From NCBI GenBank assembly GCA_041659805.1, contig JBAZXP010000001.1:320589-384588 (forward strand): a stretch of DNA of 64,000 bases. The letters run 5' to 3'. Made by a program: the position numbers and the translations under genes. The DNA is from Microgenomates group bacterium. Its GTDB lineage: Bacteria; Patescibacteriota; Microgenomatia; Daviesbacterales; UBA10151. Each line of letters starts with the position of its first letter. Position 1 is the stretch's first letter. This document shows, piece after piece, positions 20,279 through 41,639 of the stretch. The notes under the pieces are model-generated. The model had not been told where the DNA came from and did no database searches. It saw only the letters and a list, made by a program, of their open reading frames with translations.

Positions 20279-21422
20279 CTAAGGTTTTTGTGGGGTCAAA
20301 AACAGCCTGAAGATTAGGCCAAACATCTTCGCGTCTGCTAATAGTCCCTGCATAAAATCTTGGGTTTGAAATAGATCGTCGGTATTCACCGATTAGTCCG
20401 CCGGAAGTGTCATATCCTACCTGAATATAAGTGTACAAATTCACAGGAATTTTTAACATTTCTTGTACTGCTTTAGTTGATGCAGAAGTGTCAGAATCAC
20501 CCCAGTTATCACCATCTGAAAAATGCATAGGGTAAATATTGTATGAATCAACGGGGTAACGTTTTTTAATAATATCCAGTGCTGCAATATTAGCAGAAGA
20601 ACATTTAGTTCCGCCCCCGGCGCCCCTTTTGAAGAATTTTTCTTCATCTACTTCATAAGCCTCAGTATCATGAGCAAGAAAAACTATATCAACTTTTGGG
20701 TATTTAGTTCTTAAAAATTTCACAGCCCACCAACAAAAAGCCCGACTGGCATAAATTTCAAAGTCTCCCATTGATCCGGAAATATCCCTCATTGGGATAA
20801 TAACTGCCTTTGCCTGTTCTCTTTGCTTTTCCTGATATGTTCTAACACGGAAATCTTCCGGAATAATGTCTCCAATTTCTGCTTTGCCGCTTTCTGTCGC
20901 GTTTCTTGTGATATTTGCGTAAACTGTTCTTTGTAAATCTAAATTACTCGGTGTTTTTCTTTTTGCGACAGTATCAAAGGTTGGTTTTTCAGAGATTACA
21001 TCTTGATCCTTTTTGGGCAAGAGATGGGGGAGTCCCAAATCTTTAAAAATCATTGCTTCCAGCTCTGCAATACTTATTTCAGTTTCATAATATTCCACAC
21101 CCGGTTGGTCTCCCGCGCCTTGTCCGGATTGTGATTCAGAATCAATAGTATCTCCCTCCTTTTCTCCTCCTTCTCCGTTTCCAACTCCGCCCTCGTCATT
21201 TTTATAAATAATCCGTGGAAGATTAAGGGCGCGCATTGGAATTTTAACTATTCTTTTGCTGGTTGGATCCGCGGTGATGATACTCCCGTCACTAACAATG
21301 CTATCTAAATTGCCTTGGATTGCTTCTTTGACCTTTTCGTCATGACGGGCAGCATCTCTTGACCCTTGTTGGTTTAGGGACCAATCATGTTTAGAAATAG
21401 ATACAATATCAAACTCATTCAT
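20271..21422 (-). CDS. YeaH/YhbH family protein (DUF444, vWA-like)
   Basis: 383 aa; a Gly/Glu-rich linker followed by a vWA-like core. It overlaps spoVR by 8 nt and sits between prkA and spoVR. Confidence 0.8.
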   Translation of the reverse strand: MNEFDIVSISKHDWSLNQQGSRDAARHDEKVKEAIQGNLDSIVSDGSIITADPTSKRIVKIPMRALNLPRIIYKNDEGGVGNGEGGEKEGDTIDSESQSGQGAGDQPGVEYYETEISIAELEAMIFKDLGLPHLLPKKDQDVISEKPTFDTVAKRKTPSNLDLQRTVYANITRNATESGKAEIGDIIPEDFRVRTYQEKQREQAKAVIIPMRDISGSMGDFEIYASRAFCWWAVKFLRTKYPKVDIVFLAHDTEAYEVDEEKFFKRGAGGGTKCSSANIAALDIIKKRYPVDSYNIYPMHFSDGDNWGDSDTSASTKAVQEMLKIPVNLYTYIQVGYDTSGGLIGEYRRSISNPRFYAGTISRREDVWPNLQAVFDPTKTLVA

Positions 21423-21445
21423 AATTAATATTACACGGTTGATTC

Positions 21446-28680: not shown

Positions 28681-28734
28681 AACAGCCTTTATTATACCTT
28701 GATTTTTAAGTCTTCTAAATGAGACAATAAATTT

Positions 28735-31137
28735 ATGCAGCCTGCCTCTGAAGATCAAAAGAAGTTTATAGTTCCCTTAGAAAAAGTTGGTATTGAAGAT
28801 GTTCCAGAAGTAGGTGGTAAAAATGCCTCACTTGGTGAAATGATTCAATATTTGGTGCCTAAAGGGGTAAATGTTCCTGGAGGTTATGTGGTAACAGCTA
28901 CTGCTTACCGCTATTTTCTGGAATCTACTCCATTAAAAGAATTTATCAAAAAAACCCTGGATGGATTAAATACTCACAATATGGAAGAGTTGTCCAGAAA
29001 GGCAAAACAGGTAAGAGATGCAATTGTAACCACCGCGTTCCCCAAGGATTTAGAAGAGGAGATAGAACGTGCTCATCGTGAGATAGAAAAAAGATATGGT
29101 AGAGGTGCTGATTTTGCAGTCAGATCATCTGCCACAGCAGAGGATTTACCAGATGCTTCTTTTGCCGGAGAGCATGAAACATATCTTAATATCAGAGGTG
29201 TTTCTGAAATAGTCAAAGCTGTTAAACGTTCTATGGCGTCTCTTTTTACAGCCAGAGCAATTTCTTACAGAGTTGATAAAAAATTTGATCATTTTTCAAT
29301 TGCGTTATCTGTTGGTGTGCAAAGAATGGTTAGATCAGATCTTGGTTGTTCTGGTGTAATGTTTTCACTAGATACGGAATCAGGTTTTCCGGATGTGGTT
29401 ATTATTGATGGATCATGGGGACTTGGGGAGATGATTGTTCAAGGAGAGGTTACCCCAGATGAGTTTTTGGTTTACAAGCCGAGTTTAGGGAAAGATGGTT
29501 TTACTCCTATTATAGAAAAAAAGTATGGAGTTAAAAATCAAAAAATGATTTATTCAGACACCAGTCCAACAAAAATAGTTTCAACATCGGAAAAAGAAAG
29601 AGCAATTTTTGTTTTGTCTGACGCGGAAATTATTAAATTAGCTGAGTGGGGTGTGGAGGTGGAAAAACATTATTCCAAAAAACATGGCAAATGGACTCCA
29701 ATGGATATGGAATGGGCAAAAGACGGTAAAACTAATGAGTTATTTATGATTCAGGCCAGGCCAGAAACGATTCATGCCACGCGTGATTTTACTAAAGTAA
29801 AAGAATATATAAGGGAAGAAGAAGGAGTTGAAATTGTTAAAGGTGCTTCAGTTGGTGGAAAAATTGCTACAGGCAAGGCTAGGGTAATTTTAAATCCGGC
29901 TGATATTAATAAATTTAAAGAAGGTGAGGTTTTGGTAACAGTCATGACAGATCCAGACTGGGAACCAATCATGAAAATCGCTGCAGGAATTGTAACAGAT
30001 AAAGGTGGAAGAACTTCTCATGCAGCAATTGTTTCCCGAGAACTTGGTATTCCTTGTATTGTAGGTTCTCTTGAGGCAACAGAAAAAATAAAAACAGGGG
30101 ATGAGATAACAGTTGATACATCTGGCTCAGACGGAATTGTTTTTGAAGGTGTTTTGAAATTTAGAGTGGTGGAACATGATACAAAAACTTTACCAAAAAC
30201 AAAAACCCATATCATGATGAATATTGCTACCCCTGATACAGCATTTGAAAAATCATTTTTACCAAATGACGGTGTGGGGCTTGCTCGTGAAGAATTTATT
30301 ATTGCCTCAATTGGAATTCACCCTAACGCATTACTTGATTACCAAAAACTAACACCAAATTTAAAGCGAAAAATTGATGAAAAAACATTTGGTTATCCTG
30401 ACAAGGTTAAATTTTATGTAGATAATTTGGCTTATGGAATTGCAAAAATTGCAGCGGCCTTTAATCCCAAACCAGTGATTGTCCGTTTTTCAGATTTTAA
30501 AACGAATGAATATGGAACTTTACTTGGTGGTGAAGATTATGAACCAAAAGAAGAAAATCCTATGATTGGCTGGCGTGGTGCTTCTCGTTATTATCATCCT
30601 GAATTTACCAAGGCTTTTGAGTTGGAAGTTATTGCCATGAAAAAGGTTCGAGAAGAAATGGGACTAAAAAATGTCATGGCAATGATTCCGTTTTGCAGAA
30701 CAGTTGAAGAAGGAAAAAAAGTTGTTGATTTGATAGAAAAATATGGATTGAAACAATCTGCTGACTTTAAAATTTATGTAATGTGTGAGATTCCAGCAAA
30801 TGTTATCTTAGCTGAGGAATTTTTGGAAGTGTTTGATGGGATGTCAATTGGGTCAAATGATTTGACTCAACTTACTTTGGGTATAGATAGAGACGGGAAT
30901 GAAATGATTAAATCAATTAGTAATGAAAAAGATGAGGCAGTCAAAAAACTTATCAGTGAGGTTATAAAGAAATGTAAAGCCAAAAATAAATATATCGGTA
31001 TTTGCGGACAAGCACCAAGCGATTATCCTGATTTTGCTCAATTTCTAGTTAAAGAGGGGATTGAGAGCATGTCCTTAAATCCTGATTCAGTCATAAATAC
31101 TATTGTCAAAATCCACGAACAGGAAAATAAGAATTAA
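28735..31137 (+). CDS. ppsA: Phosphoenolpyruvate synthase (pyruvate, water dikinase)
   Basis: 800 aa; GGRTSHAAIVSRELGIPCIVG phospho-His motif; the N-terminal ATP-grasp and C-terminal PEP-utilising domains have PpsA length. Confidence 0.88.
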   Translation: MQPASEDQKKFIVPLEKVGIEDVPEVGGKNASLGEMIQYLVPKGVNVPGGYVVTATAYRYFLESTPLKEFIKKTLDGLNTHNMEELSRKAKQVRDAIVTTAFPKDLEEEIERAHREIEKRYGRGADFAVRSSATAEDLPDASFAGEHETYLNIRGVSEIVKAVKRSMASLFTARAISYRVDKKFDHFSIALSVGVQRMVRSDLGCSGVMFSLDTESGFPDVVIIDGSWGLGEMIVQGEVTPDEFLVYKPSLGKDGFTPIIEKKYGVKNQKMIYSDTSPTKIVSTSEKERAIFVLSDAEIIKLAEWGVEVEKHYSKKHGKWTPMDMEWAKDGKTNELFMIQARPETIHATRDFTKVKEYIREEEGVEIVKGASVGGKIATGKARVILNPADINKFKEGEVLVTVMTDPDWEPIMKIAAGIVTDKGGRTSHAAIVSRELGIPCIVGSLEATEKIKTGDEITVDTSGSDGIVFEGVLKFRVVEHDTKTLPKTKTHIMMNIATPDTAFEKSFLPNDGVGLAREEFIIASIGIHPNALLDYQKLTPNLKRKIDEKTFGYPDKVKFYVDNLAYGIAKIAAAFNPKPVIVRFSDFKTNEYGTLLGGEDYEPKEENPMIGWRGASRYYHPEFTKAFELEVIAMKKVREEMGLKNVMAMIPFCRTVEEGKKVVDLIEKYGLKQSADFKIYVMCEIPANVILAEEFLEVFDGMSIGSNDLTQLTLGIDRDGNEMIKSISNEKDEAVKKLISEVIKKCKAKNKYIGICGQAPSDYPDFAQFLVKEGIESMSLNPDSVINTIVKIHEQENKN

Positions 31138-31172
31138 TAATTCAAAATTTATAATGTATAATTCAAACTGAC

Positions 31173-32363
31173 ATGCGGGTTGATGACGTCTCTTTAAAAA
31201 TAATTCCTGATTCCCGGGGTAAAGATACCTTAGAAGCAACTTTAAAATCCGGAGATATTTCCGTTTCTTCCTCAGTACCATCAGGTAAAAGTACTGGTAT
31301 AAATGAAGTTTTTGTTTTAGATCCTGATACGGCACTTTTAAAATTCGAGGATGATTTAAAAGAAGGTATTTTACTTCACGACTTTGAATCACTTGAACAA
31401 TTTGATAATTATTTAATCAACTGTGATAGCACAGATAATAAAAAAGATTTAGGTGGAAATATGATGTTGGCTTTAAGTATTGGTTTTACAAAATTACTAG
31501 CAAAATCACAGAATAAGGAAATCTATCAGCTAATTGCTGAAATTGGTAATAATAAAATAGAAAAATTACCGCTATGTTTTTTTAATGTAATAAATGGGGG
31601 ATTACATGCTAAAGATTCTTTGCCTTTTCAGGAATATATGTTTGTCCCTCAAAATGTTTTACCTTCTGAAAATTTAAACTCTGTAATGTTACTTTTAAAA
31701 GTTTTGGGAGATACTATTCAAAAAAAATATGAACATTTGAGAATGGGGGATGAGGGAGGATATGAGGTACCAGAGAAAGATCCTGAAATTGGATTAAAGA
31801 TTCTGACTGAAGCAATAAAAGAAAGCAATCAGGAAAAAAGCAAGATAAGCTTGGACGTTGCTGCTTCATCATTTTTTAAAGATGGATTATATTTAGTTGG
31901 AGACAATGTGCAAACTAAAGACCAGCTATTAGATCTTTATCAAATACTAAATACAAAATACCAAATACTATCTATAGAAGATCCATTTGATGAAAAAGAT
32001 GAAGATGGGTTTCAAAAAATAGTAGAAAAAATAGGTAATCAGGTTTGGATTGTGGGTGATGATTTAACTACTACTAATACTGAACGCATTAAAATAATGG
32101 AAGATAAAAAAGCCTGTAATGCTGTCATCATAAAACCAAATCAAATTGGAACTGTGAGCGAGGCTTTGGAAGCTGTAAGACTTGCACAGACGTTTGGTTG
32201 GAAAGTGATTGTGTCACACCGATCAGGTGAAACAATGGATACATTTATTGCAGATTTAGCAGTGGGAGTTGGAGCAGATGGGTTAAAATCAGGATGCCCA
32301 TTACAAAAAGAACGTTTGGTTAAATATCAGAGATTAATTGAAATAGAAAAACAATTGGCTTAA
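31173..32363 (+). CDS. eno: Enolase (compact, divergent N-terminus)
   Basis: QEYMFVP, SIEDPFDEKDEDGF, VGDDLTTTN, IKPNQIGTVSE and SHRSGETMDTFIADLAV motifs all present; 396 aa. Confidence 0.88.
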   Translation: MRVDDVSLKIIPDSRGKDTLEATLKSGDISVSSSVPSGKSTGINEVFVLDPDTALLKFEDDLKEGILLHDFESLEQFDNYLINCDSTDNKKDLGGNMMLALSIGFTKLLAKSQNKEIYQLIAEIGNNKIEKLPLCFFNVINGGLHAKDSLPFQEYMFVPQNVLPSENLNSVMLLLKVLGDTIQKKYEHLRMGDEGGYEVPEKDPEIGLKILTEAIKESNQEKSKISLDVAASSFFKDGLYLVGDNVQTKDQLLDLYQILNTKYQILSIEDPFDEKDEDGFQKIVEKIGNQVWIVGDDLTTTNTERIKIMEDKKACNAVIIKPNQIGTVSEALEAVRLAQTFGWKVIVSHRSGETMDTFIADLAVGVGADGLKSGCPLQKERLVKYQRLIEIEKQLA

Positions 32364-33163
32364 GAAAGAAGCACTCCGCCGTCAACCACAATTTGAGAAC
32401 CTGTCATATAAGATGACATATCAGAGGCGAGAAAGAGGGTAACTTTTCCGATATCATCTGGTTCTCCCATTTTATGCATCGGGATTTTTGCCATAAAGGC
32501 TTCAATCATTTTTGCTGGATCAACGCTCGGATCTTTCGGTGCGCCAGACTGCAGTTTTGTGACACCAGGTGTGGCAATTCCTCCAGGAGCTATCGCATTA
32601 ACCCAAATTTTATGTTGTGATAATTCCAAAGCAGAGTTTTTGGTAAAACCCCAAAGCCCATGTTTGGAAGCGTCATATGCAGCCAGCCCCACCATGGAAG
32701 GATGAAGGGCGTCAATTGAAGTAATATTAATAATTTTTCCGCCATTTCCTTGTTTGATCATCTGCTCTGAGGAGTATTTTGTAGTTAAAAAAACTCCCTT
32801 GAGATTAACTGATATAATTTTTTCAAACTGTTCAGAGGTCATAGATGAAACAGGGGCATTGGGATAAATGCCTGCATTATTAACTAAAATATCAATCGAT
32901 CCAAAATCAGAAACAGTTTGAGTAATTAAACTTTTAACATTTTCCTCATCTGAAACATCGGTTTTAAATGCTTTTACTTTATATCCTTTGGCTGTTAAAT
33001 CAGCAACAGCTTTATTTGAATCTTCTTCTGATAAATCTGCAATCATAACATTTGCTCCTGCTTCAGCTAACCTCGCTGTAATTCCTAAACCAATACCCAT
33101 AGCTCCACCAGTAACAATAGCTGTTTTTCCTGTTAAATCTAATAATTTATCAACTGTTAACAT
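32360..33163 (-). CDS. SDR-family NAD(P)-dependent oxidoreductase
   Basis: 267 aa; TAIVTGGAMGIGLGIT Rossmann motif and a YxxxK (YDASKHG) catalytic motif. Confidence 0.85.
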   Translation of the reverse strand: MLTVDKLLDLTGKTAIVTGGAMGIGLGITARLAEAGANVMIADLSEEDSNKAVADLTAKGYKVKAFKTDVSDEENVKSLITQTVSDFGSIDILVNNAGIYPNAPVSSMTSEQFEKIISVNLKGVFLTTKYSSEQMIKQGNGGKIINITSIDALHPSMVGLAAYDASKHGLWGFTKNSALELSQHKIWVNAIAPGGIATPGVTKLQSGAPKDPSVDPAKMIEAFMAKIPMHKMGEPDDIGKVTLFLASDMSSYMTGSQIVVDGGVLLS

Positions 33164-33167
33164 AAAT

Positions 33168-33470
33168 TTATATTGGCCAGACTTGTTTGCCTGTTTCTAT
33201 ATCTATTACAATTATAGCTTGAGTTGGACAGGCTTGTGCAGCTAGTAAAATATTCTCTGGGGAATCAGTGTTTCCTTCTGTGATCACAGCTTTTTTCTCA
33301 TCATCCAGGGTAAAAGTAGCAGGTGCAACTCCAATACAAGCAGCAGCTCCAATACAAAGAGAACGGATTACCTTAACTTTATATTTTCCAAGAATAACTT
33401 CTTTATCTGCTACCTGATTTGTTTGATCATCCATCACTATTACATTAATTGTTTTAATAACTATTTTCAA
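33168..33470 (-). CDS. Small ferredoxin-like protein with three Cys
   Basis: 100 aa; CIGAAACIGVAP...AAQACP resembles a single-cluster Fer4 domain with one Cys position replaced. It lies 5 nt upstream of the SDR gene. Confidence 0.45.
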   Translation of the reverse strand: MKIVIKTINVIVMDDQTNQVADKEVILGKYKVKVIRSLCIGAAACIGVAPATFTLDDEKKAVITEGNTDSPENILLAAQACPTQAIIVIDIETGKQVWPI

Positions 33471-33497
33471 GTCAGCATATTGGTATAATATTTAAAC

Positions 33498-34364
33498 ATG
33501 CTTGAAAAAATTTCTTCTTTTATCTTGGTGCTAATTGCAGGTATTTTGGTAAATTTGCCGATTGATTTTAATAAATATGATCTGCCACCAACCTTAAGTT
33601 ATTATATTCGTACCATTGCTCCTTGTGCGCATCCAATTTATTATAAAATCGGTACAATCGATTCAATGTTTAATATTTCAACGGAAGAGGTGATAAAAGA
33701 TGCAGAGTTAGGTGCAGCTTTATGGAGTGGGGCAGCAGGTAAACAACTTTTTGTTTATGATCCAAAAGGATCTTTAACTATTAATTTGGTTTATGATGAA
33801 AGACAATCAATAAGTTCACAAATAAGTGTTAAAGAAACGCAACTTCAACAGGCAAAATCACAACTTACTCCAAACGAAGAAAAATATAATAGCTTAGTAG
33901 CTGATTTTAAAACCCGCGTTGCAGCACTTAATACCAATATTGATTATTGGAATAGTCGTGGTGGAGCCCCCCCAGATGAATATGCAAAACTAATTACAGA
34001 ACAAAATAGTTTAAAACAAAAATCTGAGGAAATAAATTCTTTGGTTACCAAATTAAATATTTCTGCCAAAGAATATAACACAATTGTTTCACAATTAAAT
34101 CAATCAGCTGAAAATTTTAATGAGGTAATTCAGGATAAGCCAGAAGAGGGATTGTATTCTCCTGCAAAAAATGAAATAGAAATATATTTAATAGTTAATC
34201 ATGATGAATTGGTTCATACTTTATCGCATGAGTTAGGACACGCTCTGGGTTTACCGCATACATTAGATAGAAACTCAATTATGAATGCTTCAACCAGTAA
34301 AACAACAACTCTTACAAAAGAAGACTTAACAGTCCTCAACAATCTTTGCTATCCTATGAAATAA
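33498..34364 (+). CDS. Membrane-anchored or secreted metzincin (matrixin-like) zinc metalloprotease with a central coiled-coil
   Basis: N-terminal hydrophobic segment; HELGHALGLPH (HExxHxxGxxH) followed by a Met-turn (SIM). Confidence 0.6.
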   Translation: MLEKISSFILVLIAGILVNLPIDFNKYDLPPTLSYYIRTIAPCAHPIYYKIGTIDSMFNISTEEVIKDAELGAALWSGAAGKQLFVYDPKGSLTINLVYDERQSISSQISVKETQLQQAKSQLTPNEEKYNSLVADFKTRVAALNTNIDYWNSRGGAPPDEYAKLITEQNSLKQKSEEINSLVTKLNISAKEYNTIVSQLNQSAENFNEVIQDKPEEGLYSPAKNEIEIYLIVNHDELVHTLSHELGHALGLPHTLDRNSIMNASTSKTTTLTKEDLTVLNNLCYPMK

Positions 34365-34378
34365 CTGAGGCTAATTTT

Positions 34379-35275
34379 TTATAATAATCCGCCTTTAAGA
34401 ATTCTAAATTTTTTATTTGTTTCCCAAACTTTTTCCAATTTGTCAAAATTATCATCTGGATTTTGCATTAATTGAGCGAGATTATCTATTTCTTCTAATT
34501 CTTCTTCAGTTAACTTATTCATTCTGTTCCAGCCATATGATGGTCCTTGTAGGTAGATAACTTCATTATTCATCAAACAATGAAAATCATGAAATAGCTC
34601 CCAACCAATAGTTACCAAACCTTGAAAACCTGATGCATCTTCAAAATGATTGCCTGCGACTTTTCCTTTTCGGACATCAATCCATGCATCTGCTGAAAAA
34701 TCAAAAGTTTTCTCAGGGATATCATAGGGATCAAATTTAAGATAATCCTCTAAACTTCCATCAATATCAACTGTGATCCATCGGGATTTTTCTTTATCCC
34801 AATATTGGTTAACCCAATGATCGTCACTTTTACCTTTCGGTAACCCTTCTACCAGAAAGTATGGAGCAAAACCAGACCTCACGCGAGCAGGAATTCCTTT
34901 AGATTTTAAAATTGATGCCATTAAAATAGCAGTAAATCTACAAGTAAGGACTAGCTTATTTTCTGTCGCCCTAGCTAATATAAAACCTCTTGGATCTCTT
35001 CTGAAAAGTTCTGTAATCATAGCTGAAACTGTTGGAAAAATATCATCCTCAGCTTGTCGATACCAAGGCACTTTAGTCATATCGCCATATCGGAGATCCT
35101 TATTTGATCCTGTATTTCCATTTTTTAAAGTAGCCCGATGAATAAGTTGTTTTCTAACTAATAATCCAATTTCCTTAATATTATCTGGCAGATTTTTTAG
35201 TAAGAGTTCTTGATATAATCCTGGATTCGTATATTCGCTAAATTGGAGATAAAAATCTAAGATTTTTTTATCCAT
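34379..35275 (-). CDS. Transglutaminase-like cysteine peptidase superfamily protein
   Basis: 298 aa; Cys (LTCRFTAIL) ... His (DHWVNQYWD) ... Asp spacing typical of the transglutaminase core. It is the last gene of the acd-korAB operon. Confidence 0.45.
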   Translation of the reverse strand: MDKKILDFYLQFSEYTNPGLYQELLLKNLPDNIKEIGLLVRKQLIHRATLKNGNTGSNKDLRYGDMTKVPWYRQAEDDIFPTVSAMITELFRRDPRGFILARATENKLVLTCRFTAILMASILKSKGIPARVRSGFAPYFLVEGLPKGKSDDHWVNQYWDKEKSRWITVDIDGSLEDYLKFDPYDIPEKTFDFSADAWIDVRKGKVAGNHFEDASGFQGLVTIGWELFHDFHCLMNNEVIYLQGPSYGWNRMNKLTEEELEEIDNLAQLMQNPDDNFDKLEKVWETNKKFRILKGGLL

Positions 35276-35283
35276 TTAATTTT

Positions 35284-36138
35284 TTAAGTATATTTTTTGA
35301 AGAGGTCGGAGAGATCTCTGACAGCGGATTGTTCTATTAAAGGCTTATCTTTTATTTGTGGAATTTGGGATTCATAAGAAGGTTTCTTTTCTTCATATAA
35401 AATACCAAGGGCTATTTTTTTAGGGCCCCATTCTAAAGATTTATTTATTGCTTCTGCTTTATTTGTAACATCATGGCTTTCATCTAATTTATAGGTATTT
35501 GCCTGATAAAATTGATGTGTGTATTCTTTATTAAAAGTCACACATGGTTGCAAGATATCAACCAAACTCAGACCATCATGATTATTGGCTTTAATAATAA
35601 GTTCTGTGAGTCCTGGAATATCACCAGCATATCCGCGGGCAACAAAGGTGGCACCACTGGCAATTGCTAAAGTCATAGGGGAGATGGGGTAATCAGGGTT
35701 TCCGTCTGGTGTAGATTTTGTGACAAAGCCATGGGGAGAAGTAGGGGAAGTTTGCCCGACAGTTAATCCATAAATTCCATTATCATGCAAAATAATAGTT
35801 AAATTATGATTTCTTCTGCAACTATGGACAAAGTGATTTCCGCCTTCTGCCATTGAATCTCCGTCTCCGGTAAAGACAAAAACATTAAGTTTATGATTGG
35901 CAGATTTAATGCCGGTGGCAACTGGTAACGGGCGTCCATGCAATCCTTCAACTGCAGTTATTTTTGTAAAATTGCAGATATGTCCGTGACACCCAATTCC
36001 GGCAACCATCACTGAGTTGGTATTATCCCAGCCTTCCTTGACTGCAGCATTTTTAAATGCGCCCCAAATTGCAAAATCTCCACAACCAGGACACCAATTT
36101 GGTTGACATGGTGTAATTAAATCATTTAAGTTTGTCAT
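35284..36138 (-). CDS. korB: 2-oxoacid:ferredoxin oxidoreductase beta subunit (TPP-binding)
   Basis: 284 aa; CPGCGDF...GIGCHG...FTGDGD are KorB/PorB TPP motifs. Confidence 0.88.
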   Translation of the reverse strand: MTNLNDLITPCQPNWCPGCGDFAIWGAFKNAAVKEGWDNTNSVMVAGIGCHGHICNFTKITAVEGLHGRPLPVATGIKSANHKLNVFVFTGDGDSMAEGGNHFVHSCRRNHNLTIILHDNGIYGLTVGQTSPTSPHGFVTKSTPDGNPDYPISPMTLAIASGATFVARGYAGDIPGLTELIIKANNHDGLSLVDILQPCVTFNKEYTHQFYQANTYKLDESHDVTNKAEAINKSLEWGPKKIALGILYEEKKPSYESQIPQIKDKPLIEQSAVRDLSDLFKKYT

Positions 36139-37850
36139 TTTAATAATTCCTTTATTTTTTCAATTACTTCTTCCGGGTAAATTGGGCGCCCATCATATTT
36201 TAATAATTTATTAGATATTTCTATACCGGTTTTTTCTCTGATAACCTCAGCTAATTGTCCGCTGAAATTACATTCAATATCAAGAAGGATTTTTGCGTTA
36301 TCCAAAATTTCTTTAGCGTCAAGTGGAAAAGGACTCATGTGGGTAATGTGTAAAAAATTAACATTTTCAAAACTTTTAATTGCTTGTAAAATAGCTCCTT
36401 TATTTGATCCCCACGAAATGATTGTTAAGTCTGCTTCTTTGGGACCAAACATTTGTTGTTTTGGCATTTCCTTCAAAAATGAATCATTTTTGCTCATTCT
36501 TTTTTGCATAGAAGCGATTCTTGCATCACTACTTTCGGTTGAATATCCATACTCATCATGTTCATCAGAATTACCAATAAAGAAATTACCAGATCCTGGA
36601 ATTGATCTAAGTGAAACACCGTCAGGGGAGTCAGCAAATCTTTTATAATCATTAATTTTCTCAGTTGAAAATTTTCCCCTGTTAACCTCTTCTTTATTTT
36701 GTGCAAAGATGGGGTAACTTTGGTCTCCCTCACAAATATTTTTATCAACAATTAAAATCACTGGTGTTTGAAATTTATCTGCTATATCAAAAGCCTGTCT
36801 TGTTAAATTAAAGGCTTCCTCTGAGTCGCCTGCCGCAAGTACAATTCTGGGAAAATCTCCTTGATGGGCATGTAACATCATTTTTAAATCTCCTTGATCG
36901 CTCCAGGTAGGCAGGCCGGTGGCAGGCCCTGGTCTCATGCCTTCAATAATAACTAAAGGAGTTTCAATATTAGCAGCCAGCCCATATCCTTCCGCCATTA
37001 AACAAAATCCACCTCCAGAAGTTGCAACCATAGACCTACAACCAGCAAACGATGCACCAATTGCCATATTAATGGCAGCAATTTCATCTTCTGGTTGTTT
37101 ATAAATAAACCTGTATTTTTGTTGGTTTTCTGCTAACACTGTTAAAATATTGGAAGTTGGAGTCATGGGATAAATGGCAGCATATTGTAAACCGGAAGCG
37201 ATGGCGCTTAAGGCAATTGCTTCATTTCCGTTAACAATCATTTTTGCAGTGATATTTTCTAAGGGATTTAATGTAGATAAGATTTTTTCTTTGAAAGTTT
37301 GTTGGACAAAATCAAAACCCGCTTTGGCTGCTTTGATATTTTGTTCTGCAATCTCTCCAGTGAATGACTCATTGATTAAATTATTTAAAATTTCTAAATC
37401 ACCACCCAATAGAGCAATAGCAGAACCAAGAGCTACAGTATTCAACATAATCTTGCTTCCATCTGCTTTGATTGCGAGTTCTGATAGGGGAACCGGTAAA
37501 AGGTTAACTTCTTTTGATATTTTTGAAGTATCAAGTCCATCAGAACCGTCAAATAAAACAAATGAGTTAGGAATTAATTCCTCAAGATGTTTATCAATAG
37601 TTTCTTGGTTTAGGGCAATTAAAAAATTAGTGTGTTTTTGGGGAGCAGTAACTGGATCTTTATCAATGCATATTTGCATGATGTTGTGACCGCCACGAAT
37701 GAGTGATGGATATTCAGTATAGGTATAAATATTGTAACCTGAGCGAGTGGCAACTTTTGCGAGCATTAAACCTGCTGATTTTATTCCCTGTCCTGCTTGT
37801 CCGCCTATTTTAAGACTGAATATTTGCATTTGTGAATCTAAATTTACCAT
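36135..37850 (-). CDS. korA: 2-oxoacid:ferredoxin oxidoreductase alpha subunit with a fused N-terminal gamma domain
   Basis: 571 aa; the N-terminal IGGQAGQGIKSAGLMLA is a PorG-like domain and the remainder is the alpha (pyruvate-flavodoxin oxidoreductase domain I/II) region. Confidence 0.88.
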   Translation of the reverse strand: MVNLDSQMQIFSLKIGGQAGQGIKSAGLMLAKVATRSGYNIYTYTEYPSLIRGGHNIMQICIDKDPVTAPQKHTNFLIALNQETIDKHLEELIPNSFVLFDGSDGLDTSKISKEVNLLPVPLSELAIKADGSKIMLNTVALGSAIALLGGDLEILNNLINESFTGEIAEQNIKAAKAGFDFVQQTFKEKILSTLNPLENITAKMIVNGNEAIALSAIASGLQYAAIYPMTPTSNILTVLAENQQKYRFIYKQPEDEIAAINMAIGASFAGCRSMVATSGGGFCLMAEGYGLAANIETPLVIIEGMRPGPATGLPTWSDQGDLKMMLHAHQGDFPRIVLAAGDSEEAFNLTRQAFDIADKFQTPVILIVDKNICEGDQSYPIFAQNKEEVNRGKFSTEKINDYKRFADSPDGVSLRSIPGSGNFFIGNSDEHDEYGYSTESSDARIASMQKRMSKNDSFLKEMPKQQMFGPKEADLTIISWGSNKGAILQAIKSFENVNFLHITHMSPFPLDAKEILDNAKILLDIECNFSGQLAEVIREKTGIEISNKLLKYDGRPIYPEEVIEKIKELLK

Positions 37851-37851
37851 A

Positions 37852-40716
37852 TTATATTTTTTCTGTATAGATACGTTCTTTTTTAATATTACGCGATAAC
37901 AAAATTTTGCTGGCGTCTTGAATCATTTGTATATTTCCGCAAAGATAAGCTGCACATTCACTGGCATCTGTAATGTTTTGATCTACCAGTTGAGTAATAA
38001 ATCCTGCTGGTCCATGCCATGAATTATCCGGTTTCCAAACGGCGATCTTAAATTTAAAGTTGGGATAATCTAAAGAAATCTTTTGAAAATAATCATTCCA
38101 GAATAAATCGTAAGGATAACTTAAACCAAAATACAGTGTCATTGGCATTTTACTTCCATGTTCTTTTAAGGCGGATTCAATCTGATATCTTAAGGGGGCA
38201 ACACCAGAGCCAGTTCCCAAAAAGAGAAGGCGTTTGGCTCCGTCATCCATATTAAGTACAAAATTACCAAATGGTCCAAGATAGGTAATTTCATCGCCCA
38301 CTTTTATTTTTTCAAAATATTGGGAACCGAGTCCTCCCGGTTTTATATCCACGAGCAAGTTAAATCGGTTTGGTTTTGGGTGAGAGACAATAGAATAAGC
38401 GTTTATTTTTGTAGGGTTTATTTTAACACTGATATATTGACCCGGCTTAGAGAGTAATGGTTTTTCTGTTTCAAATTCCAGAAAATGATAAGTACTGGCA
38501 AGTACATCGTGTGATAAAACTTTGGCTGTTTGAAATTGAATTTTGGAAGGAGTTTTTAATGTTTGCTGAGTATTTTTTAGCAAAACTTTGGTGTCAACTG
38601 CCCATGTTCCTTCATGGGTGACAATCAGCGGATTAATTTCCATTTCAGAAATATCAGATACGCTTTCTACTAATCTGCAGAGTTGTACGATGATTTCGAA
38701 AAGCTTATCTAAATTGTACGGATCTTCTCCTCGATAACCTTTAAGGATTACGGATATTTTAGAACCCTCCACAATTTGTTTTGCCTTTTTCAGGTCAATT
38801 GGAAGTAGGGATAGATTATGATCTGCAATTAATTCCGCATAAGTCCCTCCTGAACCGAAAAGTAAAATCGGTCCAAAGGTGGGATCATGTTTTATTCCGA
38901 CAATGACTTCAATACCGTTATTAATTTGTTTTTGAATTTGAATTTGGGTTGTATTTTGAATATTTTCATCCAACTTTAAAATATTTCGTTTCAGATTTTC
39001 CATTGCTATGCTTACTTCTTCTTTATTTTGAATATTGGTAATTACTCCTTGAATATCTTTTTTATGTAATAAATTAGGTGAAGAAACTTTTAATACAACA
39101 GGATATCCATTTTGGGTTGCAAAAGAGGCTGTGTCTTCTGGTGTGGATACGATTTGAGAAGGCGGAGTAGGGATGTTACTTAATACTGAAATTTGATTAG
39201 CTTTATCATTAGATAAAGCAGGTAGATTTTCGGCAACGCCTTTTTGAATAATTTCTTTTATTTGGGATAGATTTATTTGAGGCTCAGTTTGATTTATTGA
39301 TACCACTTCTTGTTCAGACTGCCATTTTTTAAAACGCCACATATCTCCGACAACGGCAACAGCTCTCTCCGGATACCTGAAAGAAGGAACCAGATATTCA
39401 TTCAGAACCCGTTTACCTTCTGTTAACATACCTCCTCCGATAAAAGAACAAAAAATCGGTTTTTGATATTTTTTAGATAAATTTCCGATAGCTTCAGCGG
39501 TTTCTTTCGGTTGGGTCATTATTTGAGGGGTCAAAATGACTATTAAAACATCCGCATTACTGGTTTGCAGGACAATCTCTATTGCATTTGAGAATCTATC
39601 TGATAAAGCGTCGCCGAGAACATCTATGGGATTGTGGATGTTTGATGATTTTGGCAATACTCCGGCTAATTTTTCTTTAGTTTCATCACTAAACTCGACC
39701 AGTTCCAGACCGGCTTCGCTGATTGTGTCTGTTGCCAATACTCCGGGTCCTCCGGCATTGGTAATTATGGCTACCTTCGGTCCTAATGGAAGATTTTCAA
39801 ATGAAAAAGCCCGGGAAAGATCAAAAAAGTCTTCTAAAGTATCGGCGCGTATTATATGTGCTTCTTTTAAAACTTCTTCTAAAACATTATCAGCCCCAGC
39901 AATAGCTCCTGTATGTGACTGCATGGCAGAGGCTGCTGCTTCTGTTTTACCGGGTTTTAAAATATAAATTGGGTTTGTTTTTGAAATTTTTTTTGTAATT
40001 TCTAAAAATTTTGGTCCATCAGAAATTGATTCCAAATACATTCCGATAGGATGGTTGCTTGAAAGCCCTTCTATCTTTTTGCTTTGTTCTGGGGAGGTTT
40101 CAAGAGTTTCGAAATATTCTAAAATATCATTTTCACTCAGATCTGCTTTATTTCCTAAAGTAATAAATTCGCTAAATCCGATTCCTGTTGTTTTAAACCA
40201 ATCAAATAAAGATGCAGCAATTGCACCTGATTGTGAAATAAAGCGAGAATTTCCAGTTGTATTAACTAATTCTCCAAAGGTTGCATTAATCGGGCAGAAA
40301 TTATTTATAAATCCTAAACAATTTGGTCCTAATAAATTAATTCTGTATTTTTTGGCAATACCTATCAGGTCGTTTTCCAGTTTTAAACCCTCATGGCCTT
40401 CTTCCCTGAATCCGGCAGCAATAGTCAGAACATTTTTAATTCCTTTTTCTCCTATTTCAGTTAAAACCTCTAGGTTTTTTGCTGCAGGGATTGCAATGAT
40501 TGCTAAATCCGGAACTTCCGGGATGTCCGTTACATTCTTATAACACTTAAGTCCTTGAATCATTTCAGAACTTGGATTAATGGGATAAATTTGTCCGGTA
40601 AATTTAGAACCTATGATATTTTGAAGGAGAATAGCGCCTATTTTTTTAAGGTCATCTGATGCGCCGATAACGCATATAGATTTAGGAGAAAAAAGAGCTG
40701 ACAGATTTCTGGGCAT
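37852..40716 (-). CDS. ADP-forming acyl-CoA synthetase (alpha+beta, NDP-forming) fused to a C-terminal FNR-like FAD/NAD(P)-binding oxidoreductase domain
   Basis: aa 1-~715: CoA-binding VIGAS...GPNCLGFIN, SQSGAIA, SHTGAIAG phospho-His loop, ATP-grasp. aa ~720-954: NAYSIVS (RxYS-like), GGLGSQYF, LLFLGTGSGVAPLRY, YLCGNIQM, which are ferredoxin-NADP reductase family motifs. Confidence 0.8.
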   Translation of the reverse strand: MPRNLSALFSPKSICVIGASDDLKKIGAILLQNIIGSKFTGQIYPINPSSEMIQGLKCYKNVTDIPEVPDLAIIAIPAAKNLEVLTEIGEKGIKNVLTIAAGFREEGHEGLKLENDLIGIAKKYRINLLGPNCLGFINNFCPINATFGELVNTTGNSRFISQSGAIAASLFDWFKTTGIGFSEFITLGNKADLSENDILEYFETLETSPEQSKKIEGLSSNHPIGMYLESISDGPKFLEITKKISKTNPIYILKPGKTEAAASAMQSHTGAIAGADNVLEEVLKEAHIIRADTLEDFFDLSRAFSFENLPLGPKVAIITNAGGPGVLATDTISEAGLELVEFSDETKEKLAGVLPKSSNIHNPIDVLGDALSDRFSNAIEIVLQTSNADVLIVILTPQIMTQPKETAEAIGNLSKKYQKPIFCSFIGGGMLTEGKRVLNEYLVPSFRYPERAVAVVGDMWRFKKWQSEQEVVSINQTEPQINLSQIKEIIQKGVAENLPALSNDKANQISVLSNIPTPPSQIVSTPEDTASFATQNGYPVVLKVSSPNLLHKKDIQGVITNIQNKEEVSIAMENLKRNILKLDENIQNTTQIQIQKQINNGIEVIVGIKHDPTFGPILLFGSGGTYAELIADHNLSLLPIDLKKAKQIVEGSKISVILKGYRGEDPYNLDKLFEIIVQLCRLVESVSDISEMEINPLIVTHEGTWAVDTKVLLKNTQQTLKTPSKIQFQTAKVLSHDVLASTYHFLEFETEKPLLSKPGQYISVKINPTKINAYSIVSHPKPNRFNLLVDIKPGGLGSQYFEKIKVGDEITYLGPFGNFVLNMDDGAKRLLFLGTGSGVAPLRYQIESALKEHGSKMPMTLYFGLSYPYDLFWNDYFQKISLDYPNFKFKIAVWKPDNSWHGPAGFITQLVDQNITDASECAAYLCGNIQMIQDASKILLSRNIKKERIYTEKI

Positions 40717-40798
40717 TAATCTAGTTTAATTGATTAAAGCGTTCTTTATCAAGCATGTACAAAGATTTTATGATTTAATAATAGGGGAGGTGAATAAT

Positions 40799-41059
40799 AT
40801 GAAGTTAGATAAAAATAAAACAGCATTGAGTGTGGGTGTATTTATGGGAGTAATGCATATAGGATGGTCGACTTTGGTTGCCCTAGGGTTAGCTCAAACA
40901 CTGATGGATAAAATATATGGGCTACATTTCCTAAACAATCCATTTAATGTAATGAGTTTTGACTTAACAACTGCAGCAATATTAGTGGTTGTTACATTTG
41001 TTGTAGGGTTGGTTATGGGTTGGCTTTTTGCCTATATCTGGAATCAGTTAGTAAAGTAA
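40799..41059 (+). CDS. Small two-TM membrane protein (hypothetical)
   Basis: 86 aa from the ATG at 40799, which has a GGGGAGG RBS 8 nt upstream. The track ORF start at 40730 is a TTG inside the intergenic region. Confidence 0.4.
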   Translation: MKLDKNKTALSVGVFMGVMHIGWSTLVALGLAQTLMDKIYGLHFLNNPFNVMSFDLTTAAILVVVTFVVGLVMGWLFAYIWNQLVK

Positions 41060-41114
41060 AAAAATAAGTATTTTTTTGAAAAAGTGTGCGTAAAAGAGTA
41101 TAATTACTCTTAAG

Positions 41115-41639
41115 ATGGAGAACTCTCGAAATAATAGTAATTTAACTTTGGTAGATGACACTCTTCCTGCTGTAACTTCTGACTCTGAAGAATATGATGT
41201 TGATATTTGGTGGGTAAAAGATGTCAAACCTGGGGATGCCAAGCAGGCAGAGAAGACAATGAGGGCTTTGTTAAACGCAGGACTCAAACCCAGACTTGTA
41301 GCTCATGCTTTAGAAAAAGGACATGGATATGAAATAGAAAGTCTAATTACCCGTCAAAAATTTATTAATTTAGATGGAAAGATGGGGGAATTGGCAGCAA
41401 CAGATCAAGTAGTTGGGGCTTATGAAGTTGTGGAAAAGTTAACATTGGGAATGGGTGAGCAAACTGTAGAAGAAATGGTTCAAGAAGAAGGATTAATAAG
41501 AGCTAAAGTGGTAACTAATATTGAACAAATCAGAGATCAAAGCCAAGAGCAGATACAAAAAATTGAAATGACAGTAGTAATTAAACAAGAACCTCCTAAA
41601 CAAATTATAGATAGTTTGGAAGATAAAATAGCAGCTTAG
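41115..41639 (+). CDS. Hypothetical acidic protein
   Basis: 174-aa ORF with no motifs I recognise; it abuts the tRNA-Pro 3' end. Confidence 0.35.
   Translation: MENSRNNSNLTLVDDTLPAVTSDSEEYDVDIWWVKDVKPGDAKQAEKTMRALLNAGLKPRLVAHALEKGHGYEIESLITRQKFINLDGKMGELAATDQVVGAYEVVEKLTLGMGEQTVEEMVQEEGLIRAKVVTNIEQIRDQSQEQIQKIEMTVVIKQEPPKQIIDSLEDKIAA

Follow-up and report, generated by a model that had tools for sequence, protein, structure and literature searches.

Origin of the question

The locus considered here raises the question of why an ADP-forming acyl-CoA synthetase (ACD) should continue, in one and the same protein, into a domain resembling the ferredoxin-NADP reductase (FNR) family, and whether the additional domain serves the 2-oxoacid:ferredoxin oxidoreductase (OFOR) encoded immediately downstream. 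The locus lies in a stretch of 64,000 nucleotides (hereafter the window) from a Microgenomates group bacterium. An earlier note on this DNA took the fusion gene, korA, korB and a transglutaminase-like gene together as a self-contained module, and its reading of the domains of all four products is borne out by Pfam.

Reality of the ACD-FNR fusion

The fusion gene (37852..40716, minus strand) is a single unbroken ORF of 954 aa with an ATG start and seven Pfam domains and, as had been claimed, no stop separates its two parts. The ACD core (residues 1-715; 38572..40716, minus strand) comprises CoA-binding (CoA_binding_2, residues 12-138), CoA-ligase (Succ_CoA_lig, 155-304), Ligase_CoA_2 (315-463) and ATP-grasp (ATP-grasp_5, 496-712, 8e-61) domains and is followed, after a linker (residues 718-725; 38542..38565, minus strand), by the FNR-like domain (residues ~730-954; 37855..38529, minus strand), which consists of a flavin-binding beta-barrel (FAD_binding_6, 730-819, 2.4e-10) and a NAD(P)-binding Rossmann half (NAD_binding_1, 832-936, 4.6e-15). 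The C-terminal region, on whose recognition by FNR-family models the earlier reading depended, scores above the gathering cut-offs of both models (41.1 bits against 21.1 and 56.6 against 22), and every ACD domain likewise exceeds its Pfam threshold, such that all five domains that the note had expected, namely CoA_binding_2, Succ_CoA_lig, ATP-grasp_5 and these two, are matched. Its four FNR motifs are likewise all located in the translation between residues 772 and 931 (NAYSIVS, 772-778; GGLGSQYF, 794-801; LLFLGTGSGVAPLRY, 830-844; YLCGNIQM, 924-931). In the AF2 model of the 954-aa monomer, with a pLDDT of 90, the linker is the sole segment with values below 50, and its columns are gapped and variable in the ACD-FNR family alignment.

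An identical protein (P0001, 100%) is present in a 1.13-Mb NCBI contig and in two independent SRA-run assemblies, and the fused architecture is common to all 120 of the top-ranking homologue clusters (51-100% identity, 922-990 aa in length), 118 of which carry both FNR Pfam domains and two NAD_binding_1 alone. The fused gene is also present at 57 related loci, and nearly all named carriers belong to Microgenomates and WWE3. Because the same protein recurs in independent assemblies and its architecture is common to the homologues, neither a frameshift, for which the earlier note had allowed, nor a misassembly accounts for the fusion; the notion that two distinct genes were merged through chimeric assembly, a frameshift or an overlooked stop, suggested by split genes in a few relatives (ACD of 707 aa and FNR of 230 aa at locus L068; a break within the ACD at L027), can practically be dismissed given the continuous frame, the identity across all three assemblies and the fused homologues and loci. 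The ACD-FNR fusion is genuine and widespread in Microgenomates and WWE3. The claim that it had not been described stands as far as the searchable literature goes, in which we found no paper on it; however, the fusion is common and publicly annotated under a generic ACD name ('acetate--CoA ligase family protein'), and both halves already bear names in one JGI record.

The two halves of the protein

The ACD core is matched by PDB 8wzu (4e-132 by sequence; Foldseek TMt 0.92) and shares with known ADP-forming acyl-CoA synthetases (Ca. Korarchaeum ACD1, 4xym; Nitrosopumilus 4-hydroxybutyryl-CoA synthetase, 8wzu) the five-subdomain alpha-beta core and both catalytic histidines, but differs from them in the additional C-terminal FNR-like flavoprotein domain of ~225 aa. 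In 120 homologues neither the phospho-His motif S267-H268-T269-G270 (SHTG) nor H551 varies; the score against TIGR02717 (480.6, cut-off 567), as against every other equivalog model, stays below the cut-off. The top full-length Foldseek match is PatZ (4.9e-88 by sequence); the PatZ/Pat protein acetyltransferases similarly join an ACD-type core of ~700 aa to a different catalytic C-terminal domain of ~200 aa, although there the appended domain is of the GNAT and not of the FNR-like type. Since both catalytic histidines are kept, the core probably works as a synthetase and not as a regulatory domain of the PatZ type. Its nearest characterised relatives among the ACDs are the Nitrosopumilus 4-hydroxybutyrate- and 3-hydroxypropionate-CoA ligases, which operate in the acid-activating direction.

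For the FNR part the nearest PDB entries are the FAD domain of NqrF (7qty, 4.8e-22), BenC (1krh) and MMOR (1tvc), and the Foldseek matches include NqrF, b5R and GcoB. With NqrF, BenC and MMOR as well as Fre and LuxG, which together provide the best sequence and structure matches of residues 730-954, it has in common the GxxS, GTGxxP and CGxxxM motifs and an E-K-F-type C-terminus, yet all scores against the corresponding models fall far below the equivalog cut-offs (in NCBIfam, PRK08051 73.7 bits against 230 and LuxG 53 bits against 340). NqrF, BenC and MMOR, in which electrons pass from NADH via FAD to Fe-S, carry a [2Fe-2S] domain in cis, whereas Pfam finds no Fe-S domain in residues ~730-954 and the partner would be a separate Fer4_13-type ferredoxin. 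Across 120 homologues ten residues of this part (Y774, S775, G797, S798, T835, G836, Y924, G927, M931 and E952) never vary, and 117 of the sequences retain C926; together with the invariant residues of the ACD part, this pattern points to purifying selection on both halves. By comparison with the NqrF and Fre classes the Arg of the RxYS motif has moved to position -4 in most ACD-FNR members, the basic residue occupying either -2 or, by way of compensation, -4 (R/K,N in 90 sequences; x,R in 26); the window's protein has Asn in place of the canonical Arg. At the C-terminus, the aromatic residue that in the FNR family usually stacks on the flavin is F or Y in 100 of 120 relatives and Ile here.

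The oxidoreductase and its carrier

The ATG of the OFOR large subunit (36135..37850, minus strand; 571 aa) follows the TAA stop of the fusion gene after a spacer of 1 nt, and the beta-subunit gene (35284..36138, minus strand; 284 aa) in turn overlaps it by 4 nt, in agreement with the earlier description of a gamma-alpha fused gene abutting the fusion and followed by the beta gene. The large subunit contains POR (19-180) and POR_N (216-446) domains by Pfam and exceeds the cut-off of TIGR03710 with 613 bits; the beta subunit contains TPP_enzyme_C and PFO_beta_C, exceeds that of TIGR02177 (306.5 against 261.9), and possesses a TPP site and, as ligands of one [4Fe-4S] cluster, four conserved Cys, its WCPGCG, GIGCHG and LQPC motifs being conserved in 57 orthologues. 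The name 'kor' is a label only, the models supporting a generic 2-oxoacid:acceptor oxidoreductase. Among PDB entries the large subunit matches StOFOR (5b46) and the Magnetococcus OGOR (MmOGOR, 6n2n), which have the same gamma-alpha large subunit and four-Cys single-cluster beta subunit, and no delta subunit. Neither Pfam nor the orthologue alignment reveals a delta or ferredoxin domain in the OFOR subunits here, and an external carrier is therefore needed.

A candidate is encoded nearby, by a gene (33168..33434, minus strand) for a small single-cluster ferredoxin of 88 aa (Fer4_13 and Fer4_15) with only three Cys in the consensus CxxAxxC...CP; on alignment with the T. maritima ferredoxin (1vjw) the second ligand Cys is replaced by Ala. 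A three-Cys pattern marks [3Fe-4S] ferredoxins, the potentials of which are nearer to that of NAD(P)H than to that of the pyruvate/acetyl-CoA couple, and in the cognate ferredoxin of Sulfolobus it is the [3Fe-4S] cluster that is reduced. The protein is the putative [3Fe-4S] carrier that would link the OFOR with the FNR domain. The present system differs from its Sulfolobus and Magnetococcus counterparts in its bacterial (CPR) setting, in the mono-cluster three-Cys ferredoxin and in the linkage of the genes to an FNR domain and an ACD.

Gene order among relatives and in the window

Of 55 foreign loci with sufficient flanking DNA, 53 have korA downstream of the FNR-bearing gene, 52 have korB there and 48 the small three-Cys ferredoxin, the last within a few kb and mostly directly after korB; the order FNR-korA-korB-Fd is retained in about 50 of the 55. 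The fourth member of the module is thus the ferredoxin, which had been left outside it, and not the transglutaminase-like gene. Five loci (L061, L063, L065, L069, L070) carry stand-alone FNR orthologues without an ACD directly 5' of korA-korB-Fd, and the fusion most likely arose from neighbouring genes; for remoter stand-alone relatives (P0133, P0129) a ferredoxin of the same Fer4_13 type is the sole partner. The synteny, the stand-alone FNR genes upstream of korAB-Fd and the FNR-Fd pairs all indicate that the conserved partners of the FNR are the OFOR and the ferredoxin, and to this extent comparative genomics backs the proposal that the FNR-like domain serves this system.

The transglutaminase-core-like gene (34379..35275, minus strand; 298 aa; a weak Transglut_core match of 27.2 bits against 23, and no match in NCBIfam) appears to be co-transcribed in this genome, but is found at none of the 55 foreign loci, its only homologue being in this genome's own contigs. 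Just 3' of it a consensus scan finds a suggestive terminator-like hairpin with a T-run (34320..34337, minus strand). In the window this gene and one for a matrixin/reprolysin-like Zn-metallopeptidase (33498..34364, plus strand; Pfam), a homologue of which adjoins the module at six loci (L005, L011, L013, L030, L050, L055), are inserted between korB and the ferredoxin gene. An SDR-family oxidoreductase gene (32360..33163, minus strand; 267 aa; adh_short_C2 4e-63, generic SDR matches in NCBIfam) lies 4 nt 3' of the ferredoxin gene; at 10 of the 55 loci it adjoins the module, at L074, L078 and L079 it stands beside FNR-less ACDs, and it thus constitutes a recurrent, non-core neighbour and a possible candidate for a NAD(P)H user. 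The PEP synthase (800 aa) and enolase (396 aa) genes (28735..32363, plus strand; Pfam), a lower-glycolysis context, complete the surroundings that the note had reported, all located within 28735-34364.

Direction of the pathway

We favour, with moderate confidence, a conserved CPR energy module of three catalytic parts and one carrier running in the oxidative direction. The Sulfolobus-type two-subunit OFOR would convert a 2-oxoacid, be it pyruvate or another, by oxidative decarboxylation into acyl-CoA and CO2 and pass the electrons to the three-Cys ferredoxin, from which the FNR-like domain, held on a flexible linker of ~10 residues at the C-terminus of the ACD, would take single electrons onto its flavin and hand them to NAD(P)+ as hydride. 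The ACD part would convert acyl-CoA, ADP and Pi to acid, ATP and CoA via the two conserved phospho-histidines, so that the net reaction would be 2-oxoacid + ADP + Pi + NAD(P)+ to acid + CO2 + ATP + NAD(P)H, with CoA and ferredoxin recycled within the module. A three-Cys, presumably [3Fe-4S], ferredoxin favours this direction, and the tight packing and the korA/korB/Fd synteny count for the module reading. In published CPR reconstructions (PMC3812714, PMC7143001) PFOR and ADP-forming acetyl-CoA synthetase likewise stand at the ATP-yielding end of fermentation. Against this reading count the Asn and Ile substitutions in the window's FNR part and the lack of an identified sink for the additional NAD(P)H within the window, as well as the nearest characterised relatives of both halves, which run the opposite way, and the AMP-forming ligase found 5' of a stand-alone FNR at three loci.

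On that alternative, which we regard as rather unlikely, the same parts would constitute an assimilatory 2-oxoacid synthase: the ACD or an AMP-forming ligase would activate an acid taken up from outside as its acyl-CoA, ferredoxin would be reduced by NAD(P)H via the FNR, and the OFOR would carboxylate acyl-CoA, for example yielding pyruvate from acetate, with the adjacent PEP synthase and enolase pulling the 2-oxoacid onward. The FNR relatives of the NqrF/BenC/MMOR class indeed run from NAD(P)H to Fe-S and, among characterised ACDs, the nearest activate acids; at three loci the stand-alone FNR is preceded by an AMP-forming acyl-CoA ligase, an enzyme type that as a rule serves activation (by Pfam at L061 and L065, and there immediately), the PPS-Eno-module order recurs at L012 and L049, and an EamA-type transporter, which could import acids, follows the ferredoxin in 33 of 55 loci. 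However, the couple of acetyl-CoA + CO2 with pyruvate (about -500 mV) is much more negative than NAD(P)H (-320 mV), the module contains no electron bifurcation or energy coupling, and a presumed [3Fe-4S] ferredoxin would be a poor low-potential donor. PEP synthase can also run glycolytically, as in Thermococcus. Moreover, CPR bacteria have been reconstructed as fermenters reliant on substrate-level phosphorylation (PMC3812714, PMC7143001).

A second possibility concerns the electron path. The FNR could dock on the OFOR beta subunit and draw electrons straight from its [4Fe-4S] cluster, forming a 2-oxoacid:NAD(P)+ oxidoreductase/ACD supercomplex in which the free ferredoxin would be only a side outlet or have some other task. 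There are known OFORs in which an attached flavoprotein reduces NAD(P)+ (the pyruvate:NADP oxidoreductase, PNO, of Euglena and Cryptosporidium; the 2-oxoglutarate:NADP+ and phenylglyoxylate:NAD+ oxidoreductases of Azoarcus), and in PNO and the Azoarcus enzymes, as in the scheme proposed here, electrons of a TPP/Fe-S oxidoreductase reach NAD(P)+ via a flavoprotein rather than a free low-potential ferredoxin. Direct docking would accord with the closely packed start and stop codons, with the slightly steadier neighbourhood of korA and korB than of the ferredoxin gene, and with the ACD fusion as a sensible scaffold. PNO itself bears a diflavin (FMN+FAD) P450-reductase-type module on a single-chain PFOR, whereas here a plain FNR is joined to the ACD and a separate two-subunit OFOR and a discrete ferredoxin are conserved in the cluster. 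However, remote stand-alone FNR relatives retain the ferredoxin and not the OFOR as neighbour, at L058 the ACD-FNR is followed by the ferredoxin with korAB not adjoining, and FNR-class domains usually accept electrons from a ferredoxin-like partner, all of which makes the direct complex improbable.

More doubtful still, and to our minds very unlikely, is a role of the FNR outside the OFOR path, either as a Fre-like protective flavin/quinone/O2 reductase or as a redox-sensing regulator of the ACD by analogy with PatZ, the scaffold of which tolerates a functionally distinct C-terminal domain. Its size and absent Fe-S domain resemble the Fre/LuxG flavin reductases, the two substitutions of the window's protein would fit, and nitroreductase-family genes are inserted within the module of some relatives, but the scores lie far below the Fre/LuxG cut-offs, all NAD(P)- and flavin-site motifs are strongly conserved, and the very strong FNR-korAB-Fd linkage, whether or not the FNR is fused to an ACD, would be left unexplained by a stand-alone detoxifying or ACD-regulatory function.

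For the oxidative module, the meaning of the fusion would lie in stoichiometry and place: by joining the two activities in one chain it would fix ACD and ferredoxin reoxidation at a ratio of 1:1, possibly in the vicinity of the OFOR.

Architecture of the fusion protein

Four tightly packed ORFs on the minus strand fill positions 34379-40716, and translation of the first (37852-40716) gives, in an unbroken frame, a protein of 954 aa, here termed ACD-FNR, which joins the core of an ADP-forming acyl-CoA synthetase (ACD; residues 1-715) to a tail resembling ferredoxin-NADP reductase (FNR; about 730-954). The sequence particulars of an earlier note on this DNA (ORFs, Pfam families and motifs) were all correct: the five families it had listed for a domain check, CoA_binding_2 (residues 12-138), Succ_CoA_lig (155-304), ATP-grasp_5 (496-712; 8e-61), FAD_binding_6 (730-819; 2.4e-10) and NAD_binding_1 (832-936; 4.6e-15), exceed their gathering scores, as does Ligase_CoA_2 (315-463), and the reductase motifs it had quoted lie at residues 772-778, 794-801, 830-844 and 924-931.

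With its subdomains in one alpha-beta unit, the ACD half is a predicted member of the NDP-forming acyl-CoA synthetase superfamily. Foldseek matched this core to the 4-hydroxybutyryl-CoA synthetase of Nitrosopumilus (8wzu, TMt 0.92) and to ACD1 (4xym, TMt 0.93), as well as to E. coli PatZ. The phospho-His motif S267-H268-T269-G270 (SHTG) of the swinging loop is unchanged in an alignment of 120 homologues, as is H551 of the ATP-grasp half, which from the HK(x)D motif and general knowledge we take to be His-beta. The protein stays below the equivalog for ADP-forming acetate--CoA ligase (TIGR02717, 480.6 bits against a cut-off of 567.15) as well as below NF045494 (436, cut-off 1200) and the 4-hydroxybutyrate model NF045493 (522, cut-off 1300), so that the acyl substrate is not fixed by these models. 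The layout parallels that of PatZ, in which an ACD-like core carries a C-terminal GNAT domain, whereas here the appendage is FNR-like and the core, judging from its conserved residues, is apparently active. Membership of the PatZ/Pat family was rejected, Pfam finding no GNAT/Acetyltransf domain and an FNR-like C-terminus; the name 'acetyltransferase' given in JGI records stems from the ACD-like core that both have in common.

The tail is predicted to adopt the two-domain fold of FNR-like proteins, a six-stranded flavin-binding barrel followed by a Rossmann-type NAD(P) domain. In an AF2 monomer model built on the 120-sequence alignment (pLDDT 90, pTM 0.71), the linker at residues 718-725 is the sole segment with pLDDT <50, and most of residues 730-950 reach about 90-97; barrel strands span 729-790, and in the half that follows beta and alpha elements alternate. 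For the tail, Foldseek picked out the FAD domain of NqrF, cytochrome b5 reductase and GcoB; by sequence NqrF, BenC and MMOR are nearest. These reductases, however, possess a cis [2Fe-2S] domain, whereas the 954 aa of ACD-FNR hold neither a Fer2 domain nor a Cys cluster, and with 79-109 bits against cut-offs of 295-500 in the models of this type, BenC/NqrF-type membership was likewise rejected.

The FNR motifs GxxS/T, GTGxxP (the NAD(P)H site) and CGxxxM are present, and Y774/S775, G797/S798, T835/G836, Y924, G927, M931 and E952 are unchanged in all 120 tails, with C926 kept in 117. At the Arg position of the RxYS motif (residues 770-775; window 38392-38409), Asn is found in the window protein and in 93 of the 120 relatives, a basic residue then standing at -4; since 90 sequences carry R/K,N and 26 carry x,R as the -4,-2 pair, one placement seems to substitute for the other, and the shift from -2 to -4 plausibly compensates by retaining the contact with the flavin phosphate. 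The window protein ends in EKI and lacks the stacking aromatic of FNRs, a position occupied by F/Y in 100 of the 120 relatives. K895 (82/120) aligns with the Asp of 'ALSD' in NADH-specific NqrF, a weak hint as to NAD versus NADP preference. As far as conserved residues can tell, both halves look functional.

Gene neighbourhood and unfused variants

One base separates the TAA stop of ACD-FNR from the ATG of korA (36135-37850; 571 aa, POR + POR_N), encoding the fused gamma and alpha subunits of a 2-oxoacid:ferredoxin oxidoreductase (OFOR), which overlaps by 4 nt the beta gene korB (35284-36138; 284 aa, TPP_enzyme_C + PFO_beta_C). Eight bases past korB begins a 298-aa transglutaminase-like ORF (34379-35275) with a weak Transglut_core match, followed by one terminator-like hairpin that is suggestive only; a promoter scan gave 35 sites against 37.3 expected by chance and was thus uninformative. 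The placement of PEP synthase, enolase, SDR and ferredoxin genes reported earlier agrees with Pfam, which finds them at 28735-34364 together with a Zn-metallopeptidase. Divergent from the ACD-FNR gene are two ORFs of 109 and 174 aa (40730-41639, plus strand) with no Pfam match, the latter preceded by the region's best promoter-like match (TTGAAA-17-TATAAT, 41076-41104).

For synteny, ORFs were called in all fetched loci and searched with the window proteins, and the denominator comprises the 55 loci outside the source genome in which 3.5 kb or more of sequence follows the FNR-bearing gene. In this downstream region korA occurs in 53 loci, korB in 52, a Fer4_13-type ferredoxin of 81-100 aa in 48, an EamA transporter in 33 and an SDR in 10. 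The transglutaminase-like gene, which the earlier note had read as the fourth member of a self-contained module, has a homologue in none of the 55 and was rejected as a member in favour of the ferredoxin; the remainder of that functional reading, the linkage of FNR, ferredoxin and OFOR, is largely borne out by gene context. The ferredoxin gene directly follows korB in most relatives, and in the window (33168-33434, minus strand) it is separated from korB by the transglutaminase-like and metallopeptidase genes, with ferredoxin and SDR just beyond.

Elsewhere the gap between korB and the ferredoxin gene holds an LD-carboxypeptidase, a bPH protein, a nitroreductase, a second FNR-like gene, or nothing. 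The nitroreductase-family genes (L008 11642-12199, L021 11690-12271, L007 12112-12678) and the divergent second FNR-like genes (L015 11639-12325, L023 11674-12381, L031 11316-11987) lie on the opposite strand, so that the locus collects NAD(P)H-flavoproteins in several relatives. After the ferredoxin there usually comes, in relatives, an EamA/DMT-family transporter (e.g. L006 12319-13239), of which no homologue was found in the window; export or import of acids in connection with the module is a possible role. The matrixin/reprolysin-like metallopeptidase (window 33498-34364, plus strand) also adjoins the module in L005, L011, L013, L030, L050 and L055, and may hint at 2-oxoacids derived from peptides or amino acids. 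In L003 (13852-16253; same genome as L036) the module is followed by HycI, the large and small NiFe-hydrogenase subunits and HypC, a possible outlet for reducing equivalents.

Unfused variants further define the partnership. A stand-alone FNR orthologue of 230-239 aa lies directly upstream of korA-korB in five loci (L061, L063, L065, L069, L070), with the ferredoxin gene following in four of the five genomes and no ACD found nearby in any. ACD and FNR are separate adjacent genes in L068, L079 has an ACD lacking FNR followed by korAB, and in L058 ACD-FNR is followed by the ferredoxin, korAB being missing; two stand-alone proteins of 38-42% identity (P0133, P0129) are encoded immediately upstream of the same ferredoxin type and next to no other module gene. 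Together, gene order and these variants indicate that the conserved partnership is that of FNR, ferredoxin and OFOR, the ACD being a frequent neighbour which became fused. In rough NJ trees FNR-less ACDs fall inside the clade of fused proteins and several stand-alone FNRs branch basally, a pattern that would fit fusion of neighbouring genes with occasional later fission or loss. Some Levybacteria-like genomes carry, directly ahead of the order stand-alone FNR-korA-korB-ferredoxin-SDR, an AMP-forming acyl-CoA ligase (AMP-binding + AMP-binding_C; L061 2471-4225, L065 6272-7979), which looks like a non-orthologous replacement of the ACD.

The oxidoreductase and its probable ferredoxin

The korA and korB products score above the cut-offs of TIGR03710 and TIGR02177, and are predicted to form a two-subunit 2-oxoacid:acceptor oxidoreductase with fused gamma-alpha and separate beta chains and no delta subunit; as to substrate class, the models suggest only this generic activity. 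The beta subunit keeps four Cys (WCPGCG, GIGCHG, LQPC) and Pfam finds no delta or ferredoxin domain in the enzyme, which together imply a single [4Fe-4S] cluster and the need for an external acceptor. The window ferredoxin has three Cys only, in a CxxAxxC...CP pattern, its CIGAAAC aligning with CIGCGVC of the [4Fe-4S] ferredoxin of T. maritima, such that Ala replaces the second ligand Cys. Ferredoxins of this pattern bind [3Fe-4S] clusters, usually less negative than those of 4Fe ferredoxins, and we infer a [3Fe-4S] cluster here.

A proposed route and its alternatives

The module probably runs oxidatively, from OFOR through ferredoxin and FNR to NAD(P)+, with ATP made by the ACD. The OFOR would oxidise a 2-oxoacid, most likely pyruvate given that the host is a TCA-less fermenter, to acyl-CoA while reducing ferredoxin; the FNR domain would re-oxidise the ferredoxin with reduction of NAD(P)+; and the ACD would turn the acyl-CoA into ATP, such that both CoA and ferredoxin would cycle inside the module. 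A bolder proposal, which we consider rather unlikely, is that ACD-FNR, the two-subunit OFOR and the three-Cys ferredoxin form one physical supercomplex and not just a co-expressed set, a ferredoxin-internal, CoA-recycling '2-oxoacid:NAD(P)+ oxidoreductase (ATP-forming)' with the ACD fusion as structural scaffold. If true, it would replace pyruvate dehydrogenase plus Pta-Ack in Microgenomates and WWE3, and would explain how hydrogenase-poor, respiration-less cells dispose of ferredoxin electrons.

The main rival to the oxidative route is the same machinery run in reverse, activating acids and carboxylating them reductively. This would agree with the physiological direction of NqrF/BenC-type reductases, with the acid-activating role of the nearest characterised ACDs (Nitrosopumilus) and with the position of the AMP-forming ligase in L061 and L065, where it immediately precedes the stand-alone FNR, but it is disfavoured both by thermodynamics and by the three-Cys ferredoxin, and we regard it as unlikely. 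A direct, ferredoxin-independent complex resembling pyruvate:NADP oxidoreductase (PNO) appears distinctly unlikely. The combination found here works alike in its proposed logic, and Azoarcus KGOR is a precedent for OFOR-linked NAD(P)+ reduction; PNO, however, is a PFOR fused to a diflavin module of the NADPH-P450-reductase type, whereas here a plain FNR is carried on an ACD and the two-subunit OFOR is separate. Membership of the PNO family was rejected on the ACD as fusion partner, the absence of a flavodoxin/FMN domain from ACD-FNR and a TIGR02176 score of 19 bits against 911. That the FNR acts apart from the OFOR, for example in Fre-like flavin reduction or in regulation, is very unlikely; its stand-alone forms lie next to korA-korB or the ferredoxin gene.

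Reality and extent of the fusion

That the protein is an artefact joining two genes is exceedingly improbable, a frameshift or assembly error being ruled out by the unbroken frame, the identical protein in three assemblies and the fused state of the top 120 clusters. A 100% identical public protein, 'acetate--CoA ligase family protein [Microgenomates group bacterium]', is encoded on a 1.13-Mb contig, and contigs from independent assemblies of two SRA runs contain the same protein. Among homologues, the 120 best clusters (922-990 aa; 51-100% identity) have the fused architecture in common; the records of 118 list both FNR Pfam domains and those of the other two NAD_binding_1 alone. The named records are Daviesbacteria, Roizmanbacteria, Woesebacteria and 'Patescibacteria group'.

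A scan of one genome per GTDB species with query residues 600-954 yielded 212 relatives; among the best 80 of these and the other fetched loci, the fused gene was found in 57 loci, which belong to Microgenomates classes and WWE3 and include the complete chromosome RAAC2_WWE3_1. When sequences were clustered at 50%, the FNR domain drew matches at E<=1e-30 from just 73 of 1.84 billion representatives, a handful of them being fusion proteins, so that the fused family forms a compact clade. Three short proteins 55-61% identical to the FNR domain (P0121, P0122, P0125) were rejected as stand-alone genes and are read as fragments, P0125 clustering with a 955-aa fused protein and the other two lying on contigs of <=1.7 kb. 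An apparently FNR-less ACD (L073) and stand-alone FNR (L066) from one MAG, bin-0046, are halves of a single fused gene broken at contig ends, a caution for counts of split forms. Several automated TPA MAG records with the Microgenomates/WWE3-type module (L006, L008, L013, L021, L059 and others) are titled 'uncultured Gammaproteobacteria', 'Candidatus Saccharibacteria' or 'Woesearchaeota archaeon', probably as placeholder or wrong taxonomic labels. The fusion is real, conserved and lineage-typical.

Other features of the window

A minus-strand cluster at 18728-23362 encodes PrkA (638 aa; AAA_PrkA + PrkA), DUF444/YeaH (383 aa) and SpoVR/YcgB (516 aa), a conserved trio linked to stress or starvation, found here in a reduced CPR genome. 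In an unusual fusion of 918 aa (26002-28758, minus strand), a Sua5/YciO/YrdC domain (33-207) is followed by phosphoglucomutase/phosphomannomutase domains I-III (357-706). Across 1-64000 the cumulative GC skew climbs almost monotonically, whatever the gene strand, recalling the strand asymmetry that has been reported over whole chromosomes in some Microgenomates (PMC7143001).

Significance

Each part of the module belongs to a known family: the ACD superfamily, FNR-like proteins, two-subunit OFORs and mono-cluster ferredoxins. The earlier note knew of no description of the fusion, and a full-text literature search likewise found none, an absence that is no proof; the fusion is nevertheless common and partly annotated, one JGI record being titled 'acyl-CoA synthetase (NDP forming)/NAD(P)H-flavin reductase'. 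Two CPR genome papers give PFOR, ACS and, in one of them, ferredoxin-NADP reductase as separate functions (PMC3812714, PMC7143001), with a fusion mentioned in neither. In reconstructions of CPR/Patescibacteria metabolism the ATP-yielding steps are chiefly PFOR and ADP-forming ACS, and the accounts are usually vague as to how ferredoxin is re-oxidised. In two large CPR lineages, the ACD polypeptide contains a putative ferredoxin:NAD(P)+ reductase, which is firmly linked by gene order to an OFOR and a dedicated three-Cys ferredoxin; annotation pipelines hide it under the title 'acetate--CoA ligase family protein'. Should the proposed function be confirmed, these unculturable bacteria would possess a minimal cofactor-recycling route from 2-oxoacid to ATP and NAD(P)H, a clear candidate for heterologous reconstitution, and the FNR-like tail would be a third kind of C-terminal state on the ACD scaffold, after none and GNAT.
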